NCBI GenBank assembly: GCA_964016885.1
Contig: OZ024743.1
Coordinates: 9,486,001 to 9,550,000, forward strand
Direction: 5' to 3'
Source of the DNA: Eledone cirrhosa
Taxonomy: Eukaryota
Length of the DNA: 64,000 nt
Below are positions 107-59,368 of the stretch, in pieces. Position 1 is the stretch's first letter. The number at the start of each line of letters is the position of its first letter. The translations under genes were made by a program, and so were the position numbers. The notes beneath the pieces are model-generated. The model saw nothing but the letters and a program-made list of their open reading frames with translations, ran no database searches and had not been told where the DNA came from.

Positions 107-186
<80 letters not shown>

Positions 187-486
187 CAAATAACGAAACG
201 AAATTAAATTTCGTTTCGTTTGTAACTCACTTTTGTATGACTGACGCTTAAACAATTAAGTTAAAAATGTACATCCACATATGTATACTGAAATACTAGT
301 ATGCATATGAATACACACACGTGTACATATGTAGATGTACCGAGTTTTTCACTGGACACTTTACTGTGAGTGTCCAGCTATTTAAGCGTCAGTCATACAA
401 AAGTGAGTTACAAACGAAACGAAATTTAATTTCGTTTCGTTATTTGTTTTTATCGTCTCCGCTGAACCGGTACGTACTCACGCTCT

Positions 487-534
487 ATGCAAATTAGTCT
501 GCCCACTACTAATTTTCATAGAAAAAGCATATAA
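487..534 (+). promoter_or_regulatory. Compact snRNA-type promoter candidate (octamer, PSE-like segment, TATA)
   Basis: ATGCAAAT 487-494, TATAA 530-534, putative +1 AG at 559; spacing shared with three other copies. Confidence 0.6.
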
Positions 535-579
535 CGATATGTGCTTTTACGATTCTCTAGAAAGGCCGGAAGATAGGTA

Positions 580-624
580 AATATTGCTGATGAGATGTAA
601 CAACATCGAAACTAGTCCAATATT
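580..624 (+). ncRNA. Minimal type I hammerhead ribozyme
   Basis: AATATTG-CTGATGA-GATGT aaca ACATC-GAAA-CTAG-TC-CAATATT; GUC cleavage triplet, palindromic stem III. Confidence 0.92.
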
Positions 625-845
625 CCTTGTCTGGCTTTCTGGAGAATAGAGGAAAGGTGTTTCCTCGAAAACCAGTATGATTCTAAAAACCGGTTTGTCT
701 GTGTGTTTACATACAGAATAGCTGGACACTCACAGTAAAGTGTCCAGTGAAAAACTCGGTACATCTACATATGTACACGTGTGTGTATTCATATGCATAC
801 TAGTATTTCAGTATACATATGTGGATGTACATTTTTAACTTAATT

Positions 846-896
<51 letters not shown>

Positions 897-1148
897 AATA
901 GAATGAAAACGAAATTTCATTTCTCACTCTTAGTACGGCACTTACTTAAATGTAAGTATGTATGTATACGTACATACATATATGTATACAGACGTACAGT
1001 AGCATGCATATATATATATATACATACAGGTACACATAAATATATGTACGTATCAGTTTAGCGTACTAAGAGTGAGAAATGAAATTTCGTTTTCATTCTA
1101 TTACAACTTATCGTTTTCGATGCGCCTGGCCGACTGAACTCACTCGAT

Positions 1149-1196
1149 ATGCAAATTAGGCTGCTCAGCCATTAGTTTTCATAAGGAAAGTATATA
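1149..1196 (+). promoter_or_regulatory. Compact snRNA-type promoter candidate (octamer, PSE-like segment, TATA)
   Basis: ATGCAAAT 1149-1156, GGCTGCTCAGCC, TATATA 1191-1196, putative +1 AG at 1221. Confidence 0.6.
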
Positions 1197-1230
1197 CTTT
1201 CGAACATTCAACCATCTGGCAGAAGGGTAT

Positions 1231-1273
1231 ACGGTGCTGATGATAGCTAAGAAGCTTGAAACAAGTACATCGT
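1231..1273 (+). ncRNA. Minimal type I hammerhead ribozyme
   Basis: ACGGTG-CTGATGA-tAGCT aaga AGCTt-GAAA-CAAG-TA-CATCGT; GUA triplet. Confidence 0.85.
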
Positions 1274-1434
1274 TCCTGTGTCAGTGTTGAACAAAAAGGT
1301 GACGTGGTTGCCTTAACACCGTACGGCATAAATTCAGGCTGTCTGTTTGTTTACTAACGGACAAAGCGGGCGTTATAATAAACGTCCGCTAAACTGATAC
1401 GTACATATATGTATGTGTACCTGTATGTATGTAT

Positions 1435-5807: not shown

Positions 5808-6975
5808 CTATCCGTTAGGGTATAATGTGGGGCTGTAATACAGGAAAGTTTTGTGCAATTTATGTTTACAAGCCGAAATTGCCTCAGATTTTTTGTTTAA
5901 GATGTGGTCTGTGGCGTAGAGTATTTCTAGGGCCTCAGCGGCGCAGAGGTCACATGGTCTTTTATTTCCGTTATACGATCTAGCCCTAGCTAGGATCTCC
6001 CAGTGTAACTTATATTGGGTGTGGTTGTCTTTTAGACTCCAGATATAAGCTGAAAGTGACGTCATATTCCTTCTTAGAGGGTAACGAAAAGAATGGCTAT
6101 GCATGTAAAGACGCTGCTTGAATCTATTGGCAATTAACCTTATGTAGGCCCTACGGGACGTGGGTGTTACAACCTTATATTTGTAGACAATGTTGCTAGA
6201 GAGGCATTTCCCGGATAGGGGGAAATCAACCCGATTCCCACAATTACAGTTAGTACTAACTACAGGGTTGCACGTGTTCCTACGGCTAGGTAGATTAGAT
6301 AAATTTGAAGTTGTGATGTTATGTGCAAGTTTAGGAGTCGTAGAGTAAGAAATTTTAATAGTATTTCTATTAAAAATTTTACTATGTTTATGTGTAGGGG
6401 AAAATGCTTCGTAATAAGGGAAAGAAAGATCTTAGCTAATGGTGTGGCCACCTCCATATTATATGGTGGGTTATACCAACGAATGCGACGGGATCTATTT
6501 CTTCTAGGTCTATTTTCGTACTCTGTATATGCTACCTTATCGACAAATCTACTTCGAGCAAGAGCTTCATTGTAATAAGTGGAATGGTCGTTGAAAATAC
6601 GCTCGTTGGTGGAAAGACGGGAAAGCCTCAACAAAACGTTTCTTACCAGGTTCTTGGTTATGCTGGCAGGATGGTTGGAATGCTTACTTATGTAATTAAG
6701 CGTATCATTCGGCTTTCTATACGGGTAATACAACCCATTCAATAAATTGAAGGTAACGTCGAGGTAATTAACGACCGAGAGATTGGCCTCAACCTGTATA
6801 GAGAAGTTGAAGCCTTTAAAGAAGGCTGTGAGTTCTTTTCTGAACCTGTCGCAAGCACGAAGTCCGCACTTAGTTATGGTCAAAAGACCATCGTCACGGT
6901 ACAAACCACCGCCCGCGTTGGGGAATTCATCCTTGATAGAGAAAAGAAGAAAAAGGCCGATAAGATCAGTATATT
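5808..6975 (-). pseudogene. PLE reverse transcriptase/GIY-YIG, disrupted
   Basis: ORF-track segments 6260-7003 and 5808-6104 carry PLE RT and endonuclease motifs. Confidence 0.85.
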
Positions 6976-7073
6976 TTTTGACCGGCAACCTTCCTGGTGG
7001 CAAAGTTGTAAAATGTATGTATGTATGTATGTATGTATGTATGTATGTATGTATGTATGTATGTATGTATGTA

Positions 7074-7484
7074 TGGGAGAGATGACCCCTTAGCCTTTGT
7101 CAAGGCAGAATTCTAGGAGAAGGAAAACTCTGATATAACACCTGCAACCCTGATGGTATCAAATGATGTTGACTTGTTCTTCTTTTTGGTAAATATCATG
7201 TTGGTTAAGAGAGTGGGACTGGCTTTGTGCAATGCCTTTGCTCACTATAAAAGCTTCACGGCACAGGCATTGCTTTATATCTGGATATCTCTCTGCACTT
7301 GTCGTCACATGGTACAATGGGTCCAGCACTATGTGTCAATAATTGTCACAAATGTAGTGTTTGTACCAGAGTTTTCAAGTCGCTGGCTGGACTAAAAAGT
7401 CACACTTGTTCAGCGCATCGGTAGGGGTTCTCCTACATGGATATAAAGTAGTGGCCGTACTCGAAAACGAGTTGGCAGCCACCA
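7074..7484 (+). mobile_element. Non-coding RTE-related short element (5'-truncated copy of 42255-42808)
   Basis: Near-identical to 42402-42808; contains TAGGAGAAGGAAAACTCTG, reminiscent of RTE 5' regions; ends GAGTTGGCAGCCACC followed by (ATGT)n. Confidence 0.65.
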
Positions 7485-17399: not shown

Positions 17400-17413
<14 letters not shown>

Positions 17414-17736
17414 CATACACACACATATATACATATATGTACGTATGGGTTTTATCGAACATTAATAATAATGTTTCATTCGTTTGTAAACAAACGGCCT
17501 AATTTGAAGCAGTGCCGTGCCGGCGACCGATCGCCACCTGTTTGTTCAACACTGGCTTTGAGGAACAATCAACATATTTCTGGGTCATTACCCTTCCTCA
17601 GGACTGTATACCTCTGCCAGTCTGTTGATCGGTTGAAAATATATAGTATTTTCTTAAGTACACACCGGCTGAGTAGCCTCATTTGCATACCGAGCGAGTT
17701 ACAGCTGGCCATGTCGAATATTGAAAATAAAATTAC

Positions 17737-17740
<4 letters not shown>
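17400..17740 (-). mobile_element. Non-coding HHR element, octamer/TATA family copy A3
   Basis: On the minus strand: ATGCAAAT (17681-17688), GGCTACTCAGCC, TATATA (17640-17645), CTGGCAGAGG, HHR and hairpins homologous to A2. Confidence 0.8.
17565..17607 (-). ncRNA. Minimal type I hammerhead ribozyme
   Basis: ACAGTC-CTGAGGA-aGGGT aatg ACCCa-GAAA-TATG-TT-GATTGT. Confidence 0.8.
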
Positions 17741-17772
<32 letters not shown>

Positions 17773-17780
<8 letters not shown>

Positions 17781-18632
17781 ATACTTGGGGAGGGTCATAA
17801 TTGTGTAATATTGCCAGAATTAATAACAGAACACACTCACTGTTTGGTTGGTTTTCGCTTTTTGTTTTGTGTCTTTTATATCGGTAATCTAATTTACTCG
17901 GTCCTCAATGTTGCCATTGACTGACCGACGGTCAAAAATAATACAGATACAATATAGACACAAACACATATATATATAGTTTATCATAAATCTTTCGTTG
18001 CACATCTGCAACATCGTCAGTGGTGCTATTGTTTCCTCCAGTTGCATTGTATGTCTACGCCATTTTTATTCAGTCTGTCTATATATTTATTTATTTATTT
18101 GCTTGTTTGTTTATTTTATTTTGTCTTCTTTGCGCATGCGTTTGCGTGTGTGTATAGTGTTTTGTTTGATGTGTGATGTGTGTTCATGATTGGGTGACTA
18201 GTGTGTGTTTATGTGCTTGTGTATGTATTTATTTATTTTATTTTATTTACTTATTTATACTTCTCTTAGGTCAGTGTTGTTTGTTTGGGTGTTGTTGTTA
18301 TTCCATTCATTCTTTCTGTTTAGTCGTGGTCTTCTAAGTTCTATTTCACTGGCCTCTCTGATTTGCCTATCTGCTGGGTCATTTCTATGTTTAGATATTA
18401 TTCTAATTTCTATGTTGTCTATGTTTCCATCGGTCAGTCAATGGCAACATTGAGGACCGAGTAAATTAGGTTACCGATATAAAAGACAGACACAGAAGCA
18501 AAAAGCGAAAACTAACCAAACAGTGAGTGTGTTCTGTTATTAATTCTGGCAATATTACACAAATATGACCCTCCCCAAGTATAACAATATTTGTTTCGAC
18601 ACACGATTTTATATAAAAAACCTCGCAAAACT
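17773..18632 (-). mobile_element. 3' fragment of the PLE family at 43.6-46 kb with inverted arm
   Basis: 17773-18430 matches 45265-45980 (GIY-YIG C-terminus and UTR); 18431-18632 is an inverted arm with a ~45 nt tail; HHR-like core at 17983-18024. Confidence 0.9.
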
Positions 18633-29489: not shown

Positions 29490-30042
29490 AATAAACATAT
29501 GAGTAGCTTTGCTGCTGAGGAAAAATATTTTTTCGTAACGAAACGAAACCATTTTTATTTTACTCTATTTTCCTCGGTTGATATATCACCGGGTTGCCAG
29601 TATCTTTCGCGAATGTCAAACAGCACGTTGGTTGAAGATTTGTAAATCTTTCATCAGTGACACTCACTCAGAACGTACTGGAATGAAATTGACTATAGGC
29701 TATATATAATTTTCTGGGATGATCGCTTGCTGGATATGCTCATTTGCATAGAGCAAAGCAGAACAACATCTACCGAAAGTGGTAATTTGCATATAGTGTA
29801 AGCCTGGCTGGTTATATTCAATTAGCGGTAGCACTAAGACTGCATTTAAGAATAATATAGATGAAATCATATATAATACATTTGTATACAACAAACTTAT
29901 GGGTAGCCTCGCTGCCCAAGAAAAATATTTTCCCTAAAGAAACGAGAAAAGTTTACTTTTCTCTATTTTCCTCGTTGAAAATATCAACGAATTGCTGTAT
30001 ATTGCGAGGCTTAAGACAGCACGCTGTATAATACGTTCATAT

Positions 30043-30045
<3 letters not shown>
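29490..30045 (-). mobile_element. Old ~400 bp-period HHR element, octamer/TATA family copy A4 (about 1.4 diverged units)
   Basis: 29493-29630 repeats at 29893-30030; octamers at 29742-29749 and 29785-29792, TATA at 29701-29708, CTGATGA at 29651-29657 with stems I-III but GAAA decayed to CAAC. Confidence 0.65.
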
Positions 30046-39679: not shown

Positions 39680-42229
<2,550 letters not shown>

Positions 42230-42986: not shown

Positions 42987-43444
42987 AAAGGTACACAGAA
43001 ATAACACCACAATCGGTACAGTATATGGAAGGTATATATTAGGTTAACGCTTGATATAGCAGGAAGATGGTTTTAACGTTTCGGACGCTAATCATTCATC
43101 AGAAGACAGAATGAGAAATAAAATAGATTGAGGAGACGGGCGGATTGGAATTGGAAAAAATGTCTTTAGATAAAAATAAAAGGGCCATTCATGTTGACAT
43201 TCGATTCGTTTGCAATTTTGCAAACAAGCCTCAATTTTATAGCCATGACAGTTTGGCAGGTGAACAGTGAGCTGTCCTGATGAAGGGTGATACCCAGAAA
43301 CATTAGTGTCTGCAGTTCTTTTCGCATGCCAACATAAGAGCAAGAATGAAGTGTTAATTCTCCTGACATGGCTATAAAATTGAGGCAGTATCCGCAGAGG
43401 GTCGGACGCCATGCTTTGTCGCATAGAGTTACGGCCCTTGCCAT

Positions 43445-43592: not shown

Positions 43593-43635
43593 TATATATA
43601 TATATATAGTTTAGCGAGGTTTTTTATATGAAATC

Positions 43636-45441
43636 GTGTGTCGAAACAGGTTATACCTCTCAATGGTTATAGGCCCCATAATCAAGATGTCCCCAGATGT
43701 ATGTGAAAGTACAGAGGACCTCCTCAGCAGAATCAGTGAGTGCAACAAAAACAGGAGCCTATCCAACTGCATAATAGGCAGCATGGATGTGGTGTCACTG
43801 TACCCATCCATTAACATTGATTTTGCTGTGAAAAGATGTGTGGAGATGATCATTGAGAGTGAGGTGGAGTTCTGCGACGTCGACACAGACGAACTGGGCC
43901 TCCTGCTTAGACTTACCTACGACACTGACTACCTAGACAGCCATGACCTTAGATGTTTCTGCCCTAGTAGACCTATAAGAGGTAGACCCCCCACCATAAC
44001 CTCAATGGCAAAAAAGACTCCCATAGAAAGGTGGATTGGGTGGACCAAAGCTATACGGACCCCCCAAAACACTGATCAGGTAAGAAAAATGGTCGCACAT
44101 GCAATAGGGGCTAGTATCAAAACTACCCTAAAGGGCCACATATTTAAGTTCAATGAGAAAATCTACACCCAAAATGAGGGAGCAGCCATCGGCGTCAGCA
44201 TAGCTGGTGATGTTGCCAACCTTTTCATGGTATGGTGGGAAAGGAGACTTAAAGATCTCCTTAATGAAAGCTCCATAGAACTCATCATGTACTCTCGTTA
44301 TGTAGACGATATCAATATAGTTATAAGAGAGCACTAACAAGTTTGATTTAGAACGTAGCACGATGGAAAGCATCCAGCAGATAGCTAATTCCATACACCA
44401 GAGTATAACTGTAACTATCGACTTCCCTTCCAAACACCCTAACAATAGACTACCTGTATTAGACACAGAACTCTGGATTAACACTATAGACGAGAGAGCC
44501 CAAATTCTCCACTCACACTATGCTAAACCCATGGCCTCCAAATACATGATACTCAAAAACTCAGCAATGTCCAGTAGTGCTAATTTAATATTCTGATCGC
44601 AGATTTGGTACGAGTGATGAAGAATGTGTCCAGCATGTGCGACCCAACAGAAATCGAAAGACACATCCAACACTTCATCAACCGCATGCAGTTCTCTGGC
44701 TACAACCAAAGAGACAGAGTCAGAGTATACGAAGGAGCCATGGAAAAGTATAAGACCCTCATAGAACTGGACATGAAAGGAATTTTCCCACTATACAGGA
44801 GCAAATCATGGAATAGCTTAGATAGGGCTAGACATAAGATAGGGAAGGCCACATCATGGTACGACAACCAGAGATATCAGAGTGTCATGTTTGTGGACGC
44901 CACCCCTGGAGGGAAATTAGCTAACCAGTGCAGAAAGGCCCTGAGAAAGACCCACTTAAAAATAAAGGTGGTAGAAAAGCCAGGAACCACCATCAAATCC
45001 CTGATCAGCAAAACCTACCCTTTTAAGAAAACCCACTGTACCAATAGGAAATGTATCATATGTAAGGTGAACCCCCGGATAAACTGTAAAACTAGAAACG
45101 TAGTCTATAGCATAAGATGTACAGAGGGTACTTGCAGAAACATGACAACAACATACATAGGTGAGACAGCTCGTAGCATAGGTGAAAGGATAGACCAACA
45201 CTGGGGGGAACTAAAAGGACGAAAAAACGGGTCAGTACTATACGAACATGCTAGACAACAACATGACGGTAACATAGACAACATAGAAATTAGAATAATA
45301 TCTAAACATAGGAATGACCCAGCAGATAGGCAAATCAGAGAGGCCAGTGAAATAGAAATTAGAAGACCAAAGCTAAACAGAAAGAATGAGTGGAACAACA
45401 ACAACACCCAATCAAACAACACTGACCTAAGAGAAGTATAA
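43636..45441 (+). pseudogene. PLE RT-GIY-YIG polyprotein, frameshifted
   Basis: Three consecutive ORFs: 43636-44337, 44363-44596 and 44605-45441. Confidence 0.9.
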
Positions 45442-45728
45442 ATAAGTAAATAAAATAAAATAAAATAAGATAAATAAATACATACCCAAGCACAATAACA
45501 AAGAGCACATAAACACACACTAGTCACCCAGCAGACACAACACTATACACACTAGTCACACAGCACACATAACACTATACACACACGCAAACGCATGCGC
45601 AAAGAAGACAAAATAAAATAAAATAAAATAAAATAAACAAACAAGCAAATAAATAAATAAATATATAGACAGACTGAATAAAAAATGGCGTAGACATACA
45701 ACACAACAGGAGGAACAAAGAATATAAC

Positions 45729-45770
45729 ACCACTGACGATGTTGCAGATGTGCAACGAAAGATTTATGTA
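45729..45770 (+). ncRNA. Hammerhead-like motif with weak stems I and III
   Basis: CTGACGA-t-GTTGCA gatg TGCAAC-GAAA-GATT-TA; positionally conserved at 17983-18024 and 38947-38989. Confidence 0.5.
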
Positions 45771-45974
45771 AATTATGTAAACTATATATATGTGTTTGTG
45801 TCTATATTGTATCTGTATTATTTTTGACCGTCGGTCAGTCAATGGCAACATTGAGGACCGAGTAAGTTAGATCGCAGATATAAAAGACAGCGAGAAGCGA
45901 AAACCAACCAAACAGTGAGTGTGTTCTGTTATTAATTCTGGCAATATTATGCAAATATGACCCTCCCCAAGTAT

Positions 45975-46020
<46 letters not shown>

Positions 46021-56600: not shown

Positions 56601-57619
56601 TATTACAGCCCCACGTTATACCCTAACGGATAGTACGATCTATACGTGGATATTTTACGTCTTGATGTGGGAGCTAAGTATATGTTTTGTTTATACCATT
56701 ACTTATTTGCATAGGTAAGTATATTTTACCCGTATGTTTTGTAAAGGTACGTATACCTTCTCGTACGTATATTTGATTGTTTATGTTATGGCGTATAATT
56801 TTATATATTCTGGTACATATGGTTTGGCTATGTGTATACGGGAGTTTTGCGTCTGTGTGAGTATGCAGGTTCGTACGTATGTAGGGTGTGTGTATATGTG
56901 TACTTCATGTTTTGGTTGACTTACGTCTCCGAACATTCGTGTATTTACATGTAGGTATGTGTGTGCGCTTGTTATATACGTATTTATTTATTTATATACG
57001 TCTATATAATTATTTATTTATTTGTATACACGCATACACACACATATTTATATGTGCGTGGTTTTGTATACCTATGGTAAGTGTTTTGCGTATGCTTATG
57101 TATGTACGTATTTGTTTGCGTGTATGTATTTATTTATTTCTATTACTTCTGTATTGTATTTATTTACTTTGTTCTTAACTCTGTAGCAGAGATTTATTCG
57201 GTCTCCTAGTTAGAATTTTAGTCTACGACTTCTGCTATACCATTTACGTGGTTTTGTCTTTGCGTGCTATTGTTCTCCACGCTCCACATATGACGTATTA
57301 TCTTCGTTCATTGCCAGAGAACGTCTCTATGAACCACCTAAGATAACATTAGTCTACGACCTCTTTTATACCATAAACGTGGTTCTGTCTTTGCGCGTAA
57401 TTGTTTTTCACCGCTCCTATTAATGACGTATTATATTCGTTTTTTCGCGTTCTTTGCCAGCGAACTTTTCCTCGAACCAAAGTATCGTCTTCCTGTCTTC
57501 CCCCGGTTGCAACGTTTTTTGAAATATCCAGTTCTGCGTTTACAGATTGACTTTGTTAGTTTCAGAAGATCCCGTTAAGGGTGAAAGCAGCGATTCTTTG
57601 CTTAAACTTTAATCTGTTA

Positions 57620-57626
<7 letters not shown>
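56601..57626 (+). mobile_element. 3' UTR copy of the PLE at 4815-6975
   Basis: Reverse complement of 4815-5839 with scattered substitutions; includes the U4A HHR at 57558-57608; 56503-56600 may be its inverted tail. Confidence 0.9.
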
Positions 57627-57653
<27 letters not shown>

Positions 57654-59368
57654 CTTTAATTATGGTAACAATTTTAAAAACTATAATAGAAAACATTACA
57701 ATAATTCCGAAAGCCGAAAAAGAAATAGAACTAGGAATATATTATGGTTTGCTCCTCCTTTCTCACTAAATATTAAAACCCCTATTGCTAAACTATTCTT
57801 TAAAGCTCTTGACAAACGCTACCCTAGAACACATAGATATTACTCAATTTTTAATAGACATACTATAAAATTAACTTACTCTTCCACCAAAAATTTAGCG
57901 CAAAATATTAATAGAATTAATAATAGAAATTTAAAACCTAACCAAAATACCAATAATAACCCAAGCAATATTCAATCGAATAATTGTAACTGTAGAAATA
58001 AATCCAAATGTCCGTTAAATAACAACTGCTTAGCTAAAAATGTGGTTTATAATTGTAATGTTAAAACGAATTTAAATTCATTTAATCATGTCGGTTCCAC
58101 CTCCACAGAGTTTAAATCCCGCTTCAATAATCATAAAAATTCTTTTACAGATCCAAACAAAAAATCTTCAACTTCGCTATCTAGCCTATTATGGGACCTA
58201 AAACGAGATAATGTTGAATATTCCCTGATTTGGAATATTATTTCAAAAGCTACTCCTTTTAATTCCTCTTCAGAAAATTGCGATCTTTGTATAGAGGAAA
58301 TATTCTTTATATTAAAGACCAAAAATTCCCTTAATTTAAGGAATAATTTATTCAGTTGCTGCAGACATAGATTGAACTCAATGTTTAAACATAAATATAC
58401 ATTTAAAATGTAGTATAATTAATTAAGTAATTTGGTTAATATATGAAACCTGTCGATAAATCATTAGATTCCTTCACCTTTTTCATTTTCTTTGGTTAAG
58501 CACTCAAGTATAAATAAATTTTCTTCCTAAATATAAATATAAATATAATAAACTATTCTAGAAAAGTTTATCCTTTCAATATCTTGAGTAAAATATACGT
58601 AAGATAAATTTCTATACTAAATCTATTAAACATATTATTTTAGCTTAAAATATTCTATAATATTTTAAAATATTTTAATATTTTGATATTTGTAGAATTC
58701 CTTTGTTTTTAGGTTATATTGATATAATTATATTTCCAATATATAATCCTTTTGTATTTTATATACTCAATTGTACTATGCAATATATTGATGTATACTT
58801 ATCTCTATACGACTAAGTATGTATGTGTATTAACATACATATGCATGTGTTGTATGCATTTTTATGAATATATGTCTGTCTGTATATATGCATGAGTGAC
58901 GCATGTCTACCAATTGGGTGAAGATGCACACACATGTTTATATATGTATATGTAAGAATTGTGTGTGTACATGTACATGTGTACCCATGAAATTTGATTG
59001 CAAATATGCATAATTTAACAGCCATAAATGCATGAAAGTTAATCCTATATATTTATATATATATACTAAAAATTTTTATTTAATAACACAAGGAATATAT
59101 AGCAGTAATAAAGAAAATCATTTATGCTTTGTATGTATATATTATATGCGGAAGTAGATATAGTGTGTATTTTCTGAGTGTGTGTGTATATATATATTTA
59201 TGTATTTTTGCGTATATGTACGTGCTATATGATAGGTAATTTCTCTAGCAATATATATATTTCGTAATGTTTAAATTCCAATTTTTAATATATTGATCTC
59301 AATTTTTAAAATAAATATCTAATCATAACTAAACAATGATTAATTTCTCATATTATATATGTATATTC

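Follow-up and report, generated by a model that had tools for sequence, protein, structure and literature searches.

The window analyzed here, a stretch of 64,000 nt (C4:9486001-9550000 of a 3.0 Gb assembly), contains four non-coding elements, A1 to A4, in which an octamer, a TATA box and a hammerhead core follow one another. An earlier note had read them as a single hammerhead retroelement family carrying a compact promoter of the U6/H1 type. A1 (385..850, + strand) is a full 466-bp monomer of family F1, assigned here to the non-LTR retrozymes. Genome copies and tandem spacing retained the right end of the interval first proposed for it (382-850) but moved the left end to 385, and the insertion also takes in an inverted arm (180..382, - strand; arms 100% complementary), which consists of monomer positions 333-466 (at 249-382) followed by a 69-bp tail equal to positions 1-69 (at 180-248). 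Within A1, the 12-mer TATGCAAATTAG (486..497, + strand) has the same letters as an element 77 bp upstream of one host U6 gene and encloses the longest run that is invariant among A1, A2 and A3 (9 nt). A YCAS core at octamer+16 (503..507, + strand), weak in A1, lies at about the position where host Pol II genes have their PSE-like core (TCAGT); it is followed by a TATA box (528..535, + strand; TATA at 530, octamer+43) and by a predicted transcription start at 559 (+ strand; TATA+29), given that host genes start ~30 bp past TATA. A type I hammerhead with an extended helix I spans 552..646 (+ strand), with its core at 587-593, GAAA at 608-611 and predicted cleavage after GUC at 617. It was recognized by the Rfam HH9 model (38.9 bits, E = 2.5e-6, under the gathering score of 52), by its fold (z = -5.84) and by a descriptor match.

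A2 (1062..1432, + strand) is a copy of family F2, for which 2,728 candidates were found and scored copies reached 94-100%. It carries the octamer at 1149, TCAGC at 1165, TATA at 1191, a predicted start at 1221 and the hammerhead core at 1237, with helix III mutated from CTAG to CAAG in this copy, and has its own inverted arm with a 44-bp tail (894..1066, - strand). A3 (17400..17740, - strand; octamer 17688, TATA 17645, core 17601) aligned as a diverged, 5'-truncated F2 relative, 70% to A2. A4 (29490..30045, - strand) is a 1.35-mer of an old family, F4, with direct ends that are 74% identical; octamers lie at 29792 and 29749, TATA at 29708 and CTGATGA at 29657, all on the - strand, and the GAAA half is missing, so that the hammerhead previously counted with the other three is broken and belongs to a different family. 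A further hammerhead copy, of family F5 (43277..43340, + strand), is 5'-truncated and its promoter part is gone. No ORF of at least 120 aa was found over A1, A2 or the body of A4, and A3 is spanned by one low-complexity frame on the opposite strand; A1-A4 share the lack of ORF and LTR that characterizes non-LTR retrozymes, in an LTR check that left PBS and PPT aside. Long, near-perfect inverted duplications (99.5-99.6%) also occur in the window at 1484-2862/3102-4479 and at 40146-42157, in a pattern like that of the retrozyme inverted arms.

The order and spacing of signals described earlier were reproduced. The octamer ATGCAAAT is present at 487, 1149, 17688 (-) and 29749 (-), which are 4 of its 12 occurrences in the window; the first TATA lies 43, 42, 43 and 41 bp past the octamer start in A1 to A4; and an AG is found at 559, 1221, 17615 and 29679, with the CTGANGA core 28, 16, 14 and 22 nt beyond. 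The AG dinucleotides stand where they were reported but are weak evidence for a start site, as YR at TATA+29 or +30 occurs in 11 of 13 representatives against a chance expectation of about half (our own arithmetic). Membership of one family was not borne out, the four elements falling into three. Local alignment scores of 157 (A1-A2), 235 (A2-A3) and 56 (A1-A3) compare with shuffle maxima of 38-41; A4 was rejected as kin of A1-A3, its scores of 32-38 staying below shuffle maxima of 44-51. The (T/G)AGGCT(G/A)CTCAGCC block proposed to fill the PSE position proved to be confined to A2 and A3, and what A1-A4 have in common is TATGCAAATKAG, YCAS 16 bp past the octamer start and TATA. Genome-wide, TATGCAAATKAG-N72-96-CTGANGA matched 27,223 times (repeat copies, not independent events) against 0 in the reversed control, and the pattern without the main A1/A2/A3 signature still matched 1,925 times (control, 0).

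F1 and F2 form low-GC arrays dispersed over many contigs, with monomers of 466 bp (F1) and 451-541 bp (F2). Forty F1 copies, scored from 855 candidates, were 99-100% identical, and many are spaced 466 bp in tandem; the 850-to-385 tandem joint was also found in contigs of 4/4 runs, contigs of unspecified kind that speak to DNA anatomy only. Near-identical F1 sequence with the tandem joint occurs at low depth in two runs coded as other organisms (X4 and X5), where it may represent relatives or carry-over. Across 55 monomers from 14 young arrays, compared for traces of rolling-circle copying, divergence was 1.27 within arrays, 0.83 between opposite arms and 3.64 between arrays (median 1.0). Thirty distinct F1 3' ends fell at monomer positions 455-466 (13), at 60-72 (16) or elsewhere (1), and (TA)n adjoins 24 of them. 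At the other side, F1 arrays show variable 5' truncation or an inverted arm, and F2 is built alike with a 44-50-bp tail. Partial tandems, an inverted 5'-truncated arm, an optional tail and microsatellite targets are described for Penelope-like elements and their pseudo-LTRs (PMC8557442), and it is on these shared features that we match the F1 ends to Penelope. Compared with that description, the elements studied here have no RT/endonuclease ORF, a tail of 44-69 bp rather than 30-40 bp, and a full hammerhead: the minimal Penelope-type motif assumed earlier is in fact a complete type I motif whose helix III is short and often palindromic. The idea of a Penelope-mobilised, circularly permuted hammerhead repeat gained support from the tandem copies, the ends and the (TA)n targets.

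A broken Penelope-like element at 43615..46015 (+ strand) comprises an RT fragment (RVT_1, E = 2e-5, a weak match below cut-off), a GIY-YIG-like endonuclease motif read by eye and a terminal repeat ending in (TA)n. It illustrates the class of the likely helper and is not a proven partner. Pfam recognized a Penelope endonuclease in 0 of 3 such fragments, and by eye no match was seen between the Penelope ends in the window and those of F1 or F2. Penelope-related ends in the window have an optional tail of ~45-60 bp. Other broken Penelope-like elements lie at 17740-18431, 5808-7099 and 57613-58413, and some terminal repeats hold hammerhead cores; many of the Penelope-like insertions in the window target (TA)n and nest side by side.

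The type I hammerhead descriptor matched A1, A2 and A3 as well as families F3, F5 and F8, and helices I and II remain paired even though their sequences vary between families. This pairing bears on whether the repeats have no RNA cycle and are simply a satellite spread by recombination at the DNA level, or pieces of the terminal repeats of autonomous Penelope elements. Arrays of more than 20 monomers do exist, and the Penelope terminal repeats of the window share the end pattern, but the dispersal of short arrays over many contigs, the fixed 3' ends, the variable 5' truncation, the inversions and the maintained helices make such an origin highly improbable, and by eye no ORF remnant was seen beside the F1 or F2 arrays inspected. 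We read A1-A4 instead as retrozymes, probable products of an RNA cycle. The label 'SINE-like' also given to them does not apply, as Rfam detected no tRNA, 5S or 7SL head and no sense-strand B box was found in an F1 or F2 monomer. The many Rfam microRNA matches were dismissed as (TA)n artefacts below cut-off. A separate hammerhead family (L156/L110/L012) has a longer helix III, with CCAAT and TATAAATA upstream instead of an snRNA layout, and may represent the terminal repeat of a Penelope element that is itself autonomous.

The promoter layouts of host snRNA-type genes were established independently of the repeats. Best-scoring loci were fetched for U6 (30 of 48), U1 (25 of 42), U2 (20 of 48), U5 (25 of 43), U4 (15 of 42), U6atac (8 of 15), SRP (8 of 25) and U3 (8 + 4 of 15), and the top-scoring loci of U12, MRP, RNase P and 7SK were also taken. 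Polymerase labels for these gene classes follow those of other animals and are presumptive. U1, U2 and U5 promoters have AATT at -88 to -91, YCAG at -55 to -58 and usually TATA near -30, and 13/13 representatives are without the octamer; the same layout was found in 6 of 7 distinct U4 upstreams and in U12. An octamer-type 12-mer (consensus TATG(C/G)(A/T)AATKAG) at -76 to -78, 46-48 bp from TATA, marks MRP, the best U6atac match and U6, where it is present in 9 of 11 distinct upstreams (three independent loci). The repeat 12-mer TATGCAAAT(T/G)AG is this host element, found 76-78 bp upstream of U6 and MRP. In 7 of 9 U3 loci examined, ATGTAAA(A)T precedes TATA by 40-42 bp, and a TCA lies 17 bp beyond this motif and 23-25 bp before TATA; the 3' flanks of U3 are T-rich and no 3' box is visible in them. 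In RNase P and a 7SK candidate (45 bits), TCAGT lies 32-33 bp from TATA, as opposed to 25-28 bp in the U1 type, and 3' ends are T8-T9. U1, U2 and U5 have TATA as well, and the core-TATA distance could be a spacing rule by which the polymerase is selected in this host. Insects conserve the distance between PSE and TATA, and their PSE sequence helps to determine which polymerase is used (PMC1761439); in plants and protists U3 is transcribed by Pol III (PMC2784804).

A distal motif, TTAYYTCCCTT, was found near -257 to -288 in 16 of 25 host promoters. SRP genes offer no donor for the repeat layout, having no TATA, core or octamer in 8/8 loci taken. Seven of the 8 U6atac loci taken, in which the layout is absent, and two weak U3 matches were treated as pseudogenes. 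In some copies of a U6 array on C19, a SINE-like insertion parts the octamer element from the gene. A host gene matching the A1-A4 layout exactly may exist among classes outside this survey (U11, U4atac, U7, tRNA-Sec, vault and SL genes). This is a first reading of the snRNA promoter grammar for this genome and is useful for guide-RNA expression.

The comparison with host genes suggested in the earlier note proved positive. Set against these layouts, A1-A4 carry the upstream motifs of host snRNA genes internally, and the repeat families match U3, U6, MRP and U1-type promoters in the sequence of the motifs as well as in their spacing. The octamer-TATA distance is 40-44 bp in F1-F4 (41-43 bp in A1-A4), 45 bp in F5 and 47-48 bp in F6/F7, and F1-F4 have YCA at octamer+16, 24-28 bp upstream of TATA. 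F1-F4 show the layout of U3 promoters, where TATA is preceded by an octamer-like element at 40-42 bp and by YCA at 23-25 bp, with the difference that host U3 has ATGT where the repeats read ATGC. The U6/H1-type Pol III promoter proposed in the earlier note is correct as regards the 12-mer, which is the U6/MRP element and is accompanied by TATA in A1-A4, but A1-A4 fall 3-7 bp short of the 46-48 bp found in U6, MRP and U6atac and fit the register of host U3 and Pol II snRNA genes instead; only F6/F7 have U6 spacing. F6 and F7 are old hammerhead repeats, and their copies with a readable TATA keep the U6/MRP distance of 47-48 bp.

When TATA boxes were aligned with a shift of at most 2 bp, the similarity z values of F1-F4 were 1.1-2.8 against U3 and 0.6-5.1 against Pol II snRNAs but did not exceed 0.1 against the U6 group. 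F6/F7 reached 4.1-4.9 to the U6 group, and F5 resembles both the U1-type and the U6 groups. A weight matrix of the U1-type core ranked octamer+16 first among 100 offsets in A3, A4, one F4b and the F5 copy, third in A2, fifth in another F4, eighth in A1, ninth in F3, and 13th to 56th in six F6/F7 copies, the YCAS match being only ~4 bp long. AATT ~33 bp upstream of the core was absent by eye from A1-A4 and is present in F8. Alignment of the repeat bodies across families gave z = 13.5 for F1-F2 and up to 4.9 for other cross-family pairs; the 12-mer is kept regardless, a conservation that is inflated for the octamer families because most of them were collected with the octamer pattern.

Two observations come from families not selected on the octamer-hammerhead pair, in tests that were post hoc across about eight families. 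F8, a 310-bp hammerhead tandem repeat without octamer, was met by chance through the hammerhead descriptor, unselected for promoter, and has a complete U1/U2/U5-type layout (AATT-33-YCAGT-26/27-TATA) in two diverged subfamilies, with 17,625 matches against 1 in the control; the layout occurred in 129 of 100,000 shuffled monomers. In an old F4 subfamily, TTAYCTCCCTT stands at a fixed 21-nt gap before TATGYAAAT in 28 of 34 matches (control, 2), and the distal motif occurred in 126 of 100,000 shuffles. Of twelve such loci taken, 3 have a hammerhead core where it is expected, and the rest are mostly relatives that have decayed or been truncated. Seven copies of this subfamily, identical over the matched stretch and ~30-45 kb apart (C4:94589019-94814634), probably lie within one large duplicated unit. 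The host distal motif was not found in F1 or F2 monomers at fewer than 3 mismatches. Among the non-minimal hammerhead families met incidentally, 2 of 3 (F5 and F8) have a host layout and the canonical-type L156/L110 family does not; minimal hammerheads likewise have neither layout.

The motifs might also be a captured fossil of an snRNA upstream region, or be kept for RNA folding or protein binding, the repeats being transcribed passively by read-through from outside promoters. RNA structure does leave a mark on the region: the octamer lies within a predicted RNA hairpin in F1, F2, F3 and F7, the circular A1 monomer folds at -154 kcal/mol compared with -93 +/- 5 for 30 shuffles, and the extended hammerhead helix begins 5-8 nt upstream of the predicted start, so that selection at the RNA level acts here too. 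Retrozyme RNAs are reported to be abundant in every tissue examined, yet a 2020 review, which assumes such outside transcription, states that these elements seem to be without promoters (PMC7761336). The pairing partner of the hairpin, however, changes from family to family while the octamer stays fixed, and in F1 and F3 the YCAS core falls in the loop. Motifs at host spacing, in three layouts, in young families of 99% identity and in bodies diverged past alignment further render a fossil or purely structural origin improbable. Overall, the internal promoter is quite probably functional.

The same internal promoter could recruit Pol III as a type 3 promoter, rare read-through of T4-T5 giving full monomers and stable circles accumulating. 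The 12-mer, which the repeats share letter for letter with host U6 and MRP and which 13/13 U1/U2/U5 promoters lack, points in this direction, as do F6/F7 with their U6 spacing and the T-rich 3' flanks of U3, the host gene nearest in layout. T-runs are short as well: they peak at T5 in 17 of 18 F1 monomers and at T4 in 17 of 23 F2 monomers, host terminators having 5-9 or more, and one of the two F1 3' end sites coincides with a T5 run. On the other hand, runs of T5-T7 sit inside monomers, with four runs of at least T4 in an F1 monomer, T7 in some F2 monomers and T6 in an F4 monomer, and A-runs are equally short. The T4-free stretch previously taken to favor Pol III is real (273 nt past 559 in A1) but within shuffle expectation (P = 0.08-0.31 with mononucleotide and 0.58-0.67 with dinucleotide shuffles), and T-run depletion was accordingly discarded as evidence for this polymerase. 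Together with a spacing 3-7 bp below that of U6, MRP and U6atac, and with the U1-type layout used by F8, these observations leave transcription of A1-A4 by Pol III rather unlikely. The 3' box AAAWCAGA was absent from the 9 monomers inspected.

We favor, with a probability of roughly 0.55, the reading that A1-A4 are tandem hammerhead non-LTR retrozymes that use host snRNA motifs as an internal promoter, most likely for Pol II. Provided that the promoter functions, Pol II would be the likelier of the two polymerases, and it is preferred because T-runs are no obstacle to it, a 3' box is lacking from the monomers inspected, the spacing is short, F8 has a U1-type layout and the newt provides a precedent. 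Several observations pull the other way. The exact 12-mer fits the presumed Pol III genes U6 and MRP better than U3; the ~4-bp YCAS ranks only 8 and 9 of 100 in F1 and F3; the octamer is engaged in an RNA hairpin and the hammerhead helix overlaps the predicted start; L156/L110 and the minimal hammerheads do without the layout; the F1 end at T5 is Pol III-like; and host U3, the closest layout, has T-rich flanks and no 3' box.

The DNA itself shows monomers arranged in tandem, 3' ends at two fixed sites, inverted arms on the 5' side, insertion into (TA)n and type I hammerhead motifs, and from this anatomy we infer the remaining steps of the cycle. The octamer 12-mer, the PSE-like core and the TATA box of monomer n would be bound by the factors that serve host snRNA promoters, and transcription would begin ~30 bp past TATA, just upstream of the hammerhead. 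Without a host-type 3' box, Pol II would continue past the T4-T7 runs and enter monomers n+1 and n+2. Hammerheads, probably acting as dimers via the palindromic helix III, would then release unit-length RNA, and the unit between two cleavage sites would hold the promoter of the next monomer and thus a whole permuted monomer. A host ligase would circularise this RNA, and new arrays would arise when an RT/endonuclease of the Penelope type inserts copies of circles or multimers at (TA)n sites. A promoter that lies upstream of its start is normally lost on retrotransposition. In the tandem layout the transcript of monomer n holds the promoter of n+1, so that an external promoter could be inherited via an RNA intermediate, given read-through of more than one monomer. 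The difficulty raised earlier, that T-runs should stop the polymerase before the promoter is recopied, would disappear if Pol II transcribes the repeats as predicted.

That a hammerhead repeat can contain an snRNA promoter is already known from the newt case of 1994. Newt satellite 2, the subject of work by Epstein and Gall (1987) and by Coats, Zhang and Epstein (1994), reportedly uses an octamer and a PSE. It is described as using its snRNA promoter for Pol II (PMC2220036) and, like the A1-A4 families, is a tandem repeat in which a type I hammerhead, its palindromic helix III being weak, is combined with a promoter of snRNA type inside the monomer. The repeats described here differ in monomer length (466 bp in place of ~330 bp), in their apparently invertebrate host, which may be octopus-like judging by a SINE motif upstream of one U6 copy, and in having TATA in the layout, and their families carry three host layouts (U3-, U6- and U1-like) with visible Penelope-style ends. 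The promoter of the Schistosoma Sm-alpha satellite is said to be tRNA-like and to lie inside the transcript, whereas the present repeats lack a tRNA head and a B box, and their motifs stand upstream of the predicted start. Sm-alpha is also a hammerhead repeat, and its internal promoter is described as Pol III (PMC2220036).

The closest known elements are otherwise the metazoan non-LTR retrozymes (Cervera and de la Pena 2020, PMC7229834), which are likewise short low-GC tandems with a type I hammerhead, without LTR or ORF, and for which Penelope has been proposed as helper. The available text of that paper names no endogenous promoter, 'promoter' occurring twice, both times for T7, and 'octamer' 0 times. 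Retrozyme monomers range over 150-450 bp, and those described here are at or above the upper end. At the level of DNA the families of A1-A4 qualify as non-LTR retrozymes, and circles and cleavage are predicted for them. Plant LTR retrozymes such as NbRZ1 (PMC9695139, PMC12029980) resemble them in having their own promoter in the repeated part, and are set apart by the LTR, a type III hammerhead and a Gypsy helper (PMC7229834), with no snRNA-type promoter reported in the portions of these papers available.

A literature search, with most subscription journals outside its scope, returned no snRNA-type promoter in invertebrate retrozymes and no report of cephalopod hammerhead repeats. The match between families of tens of thousands of copies and the upstream regions of host U1, U3 and U6 makes the source of retrozyme transcription testable, and it extends the newt satellite 2 case to an apparently distant animal. 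The natural spacing variants among the families are also available for asking how the host picks Pol II or Pol III. More tentatively, animal retrozymes may parasitise the snRNA machinery in general, with a host-matched internal promoter in each lineage that follows the promoter grammar of its host, as the three layouts seen here might suggest, and a polymerase switch by 4-5 bp of spacing would be possible. If this were true, the abundance of retrozyme circles in all tissues would be explained, and newt satellite 2 would be the rule and not an oddity, pointing to a general way for external promoters to persist through retrotransposition.
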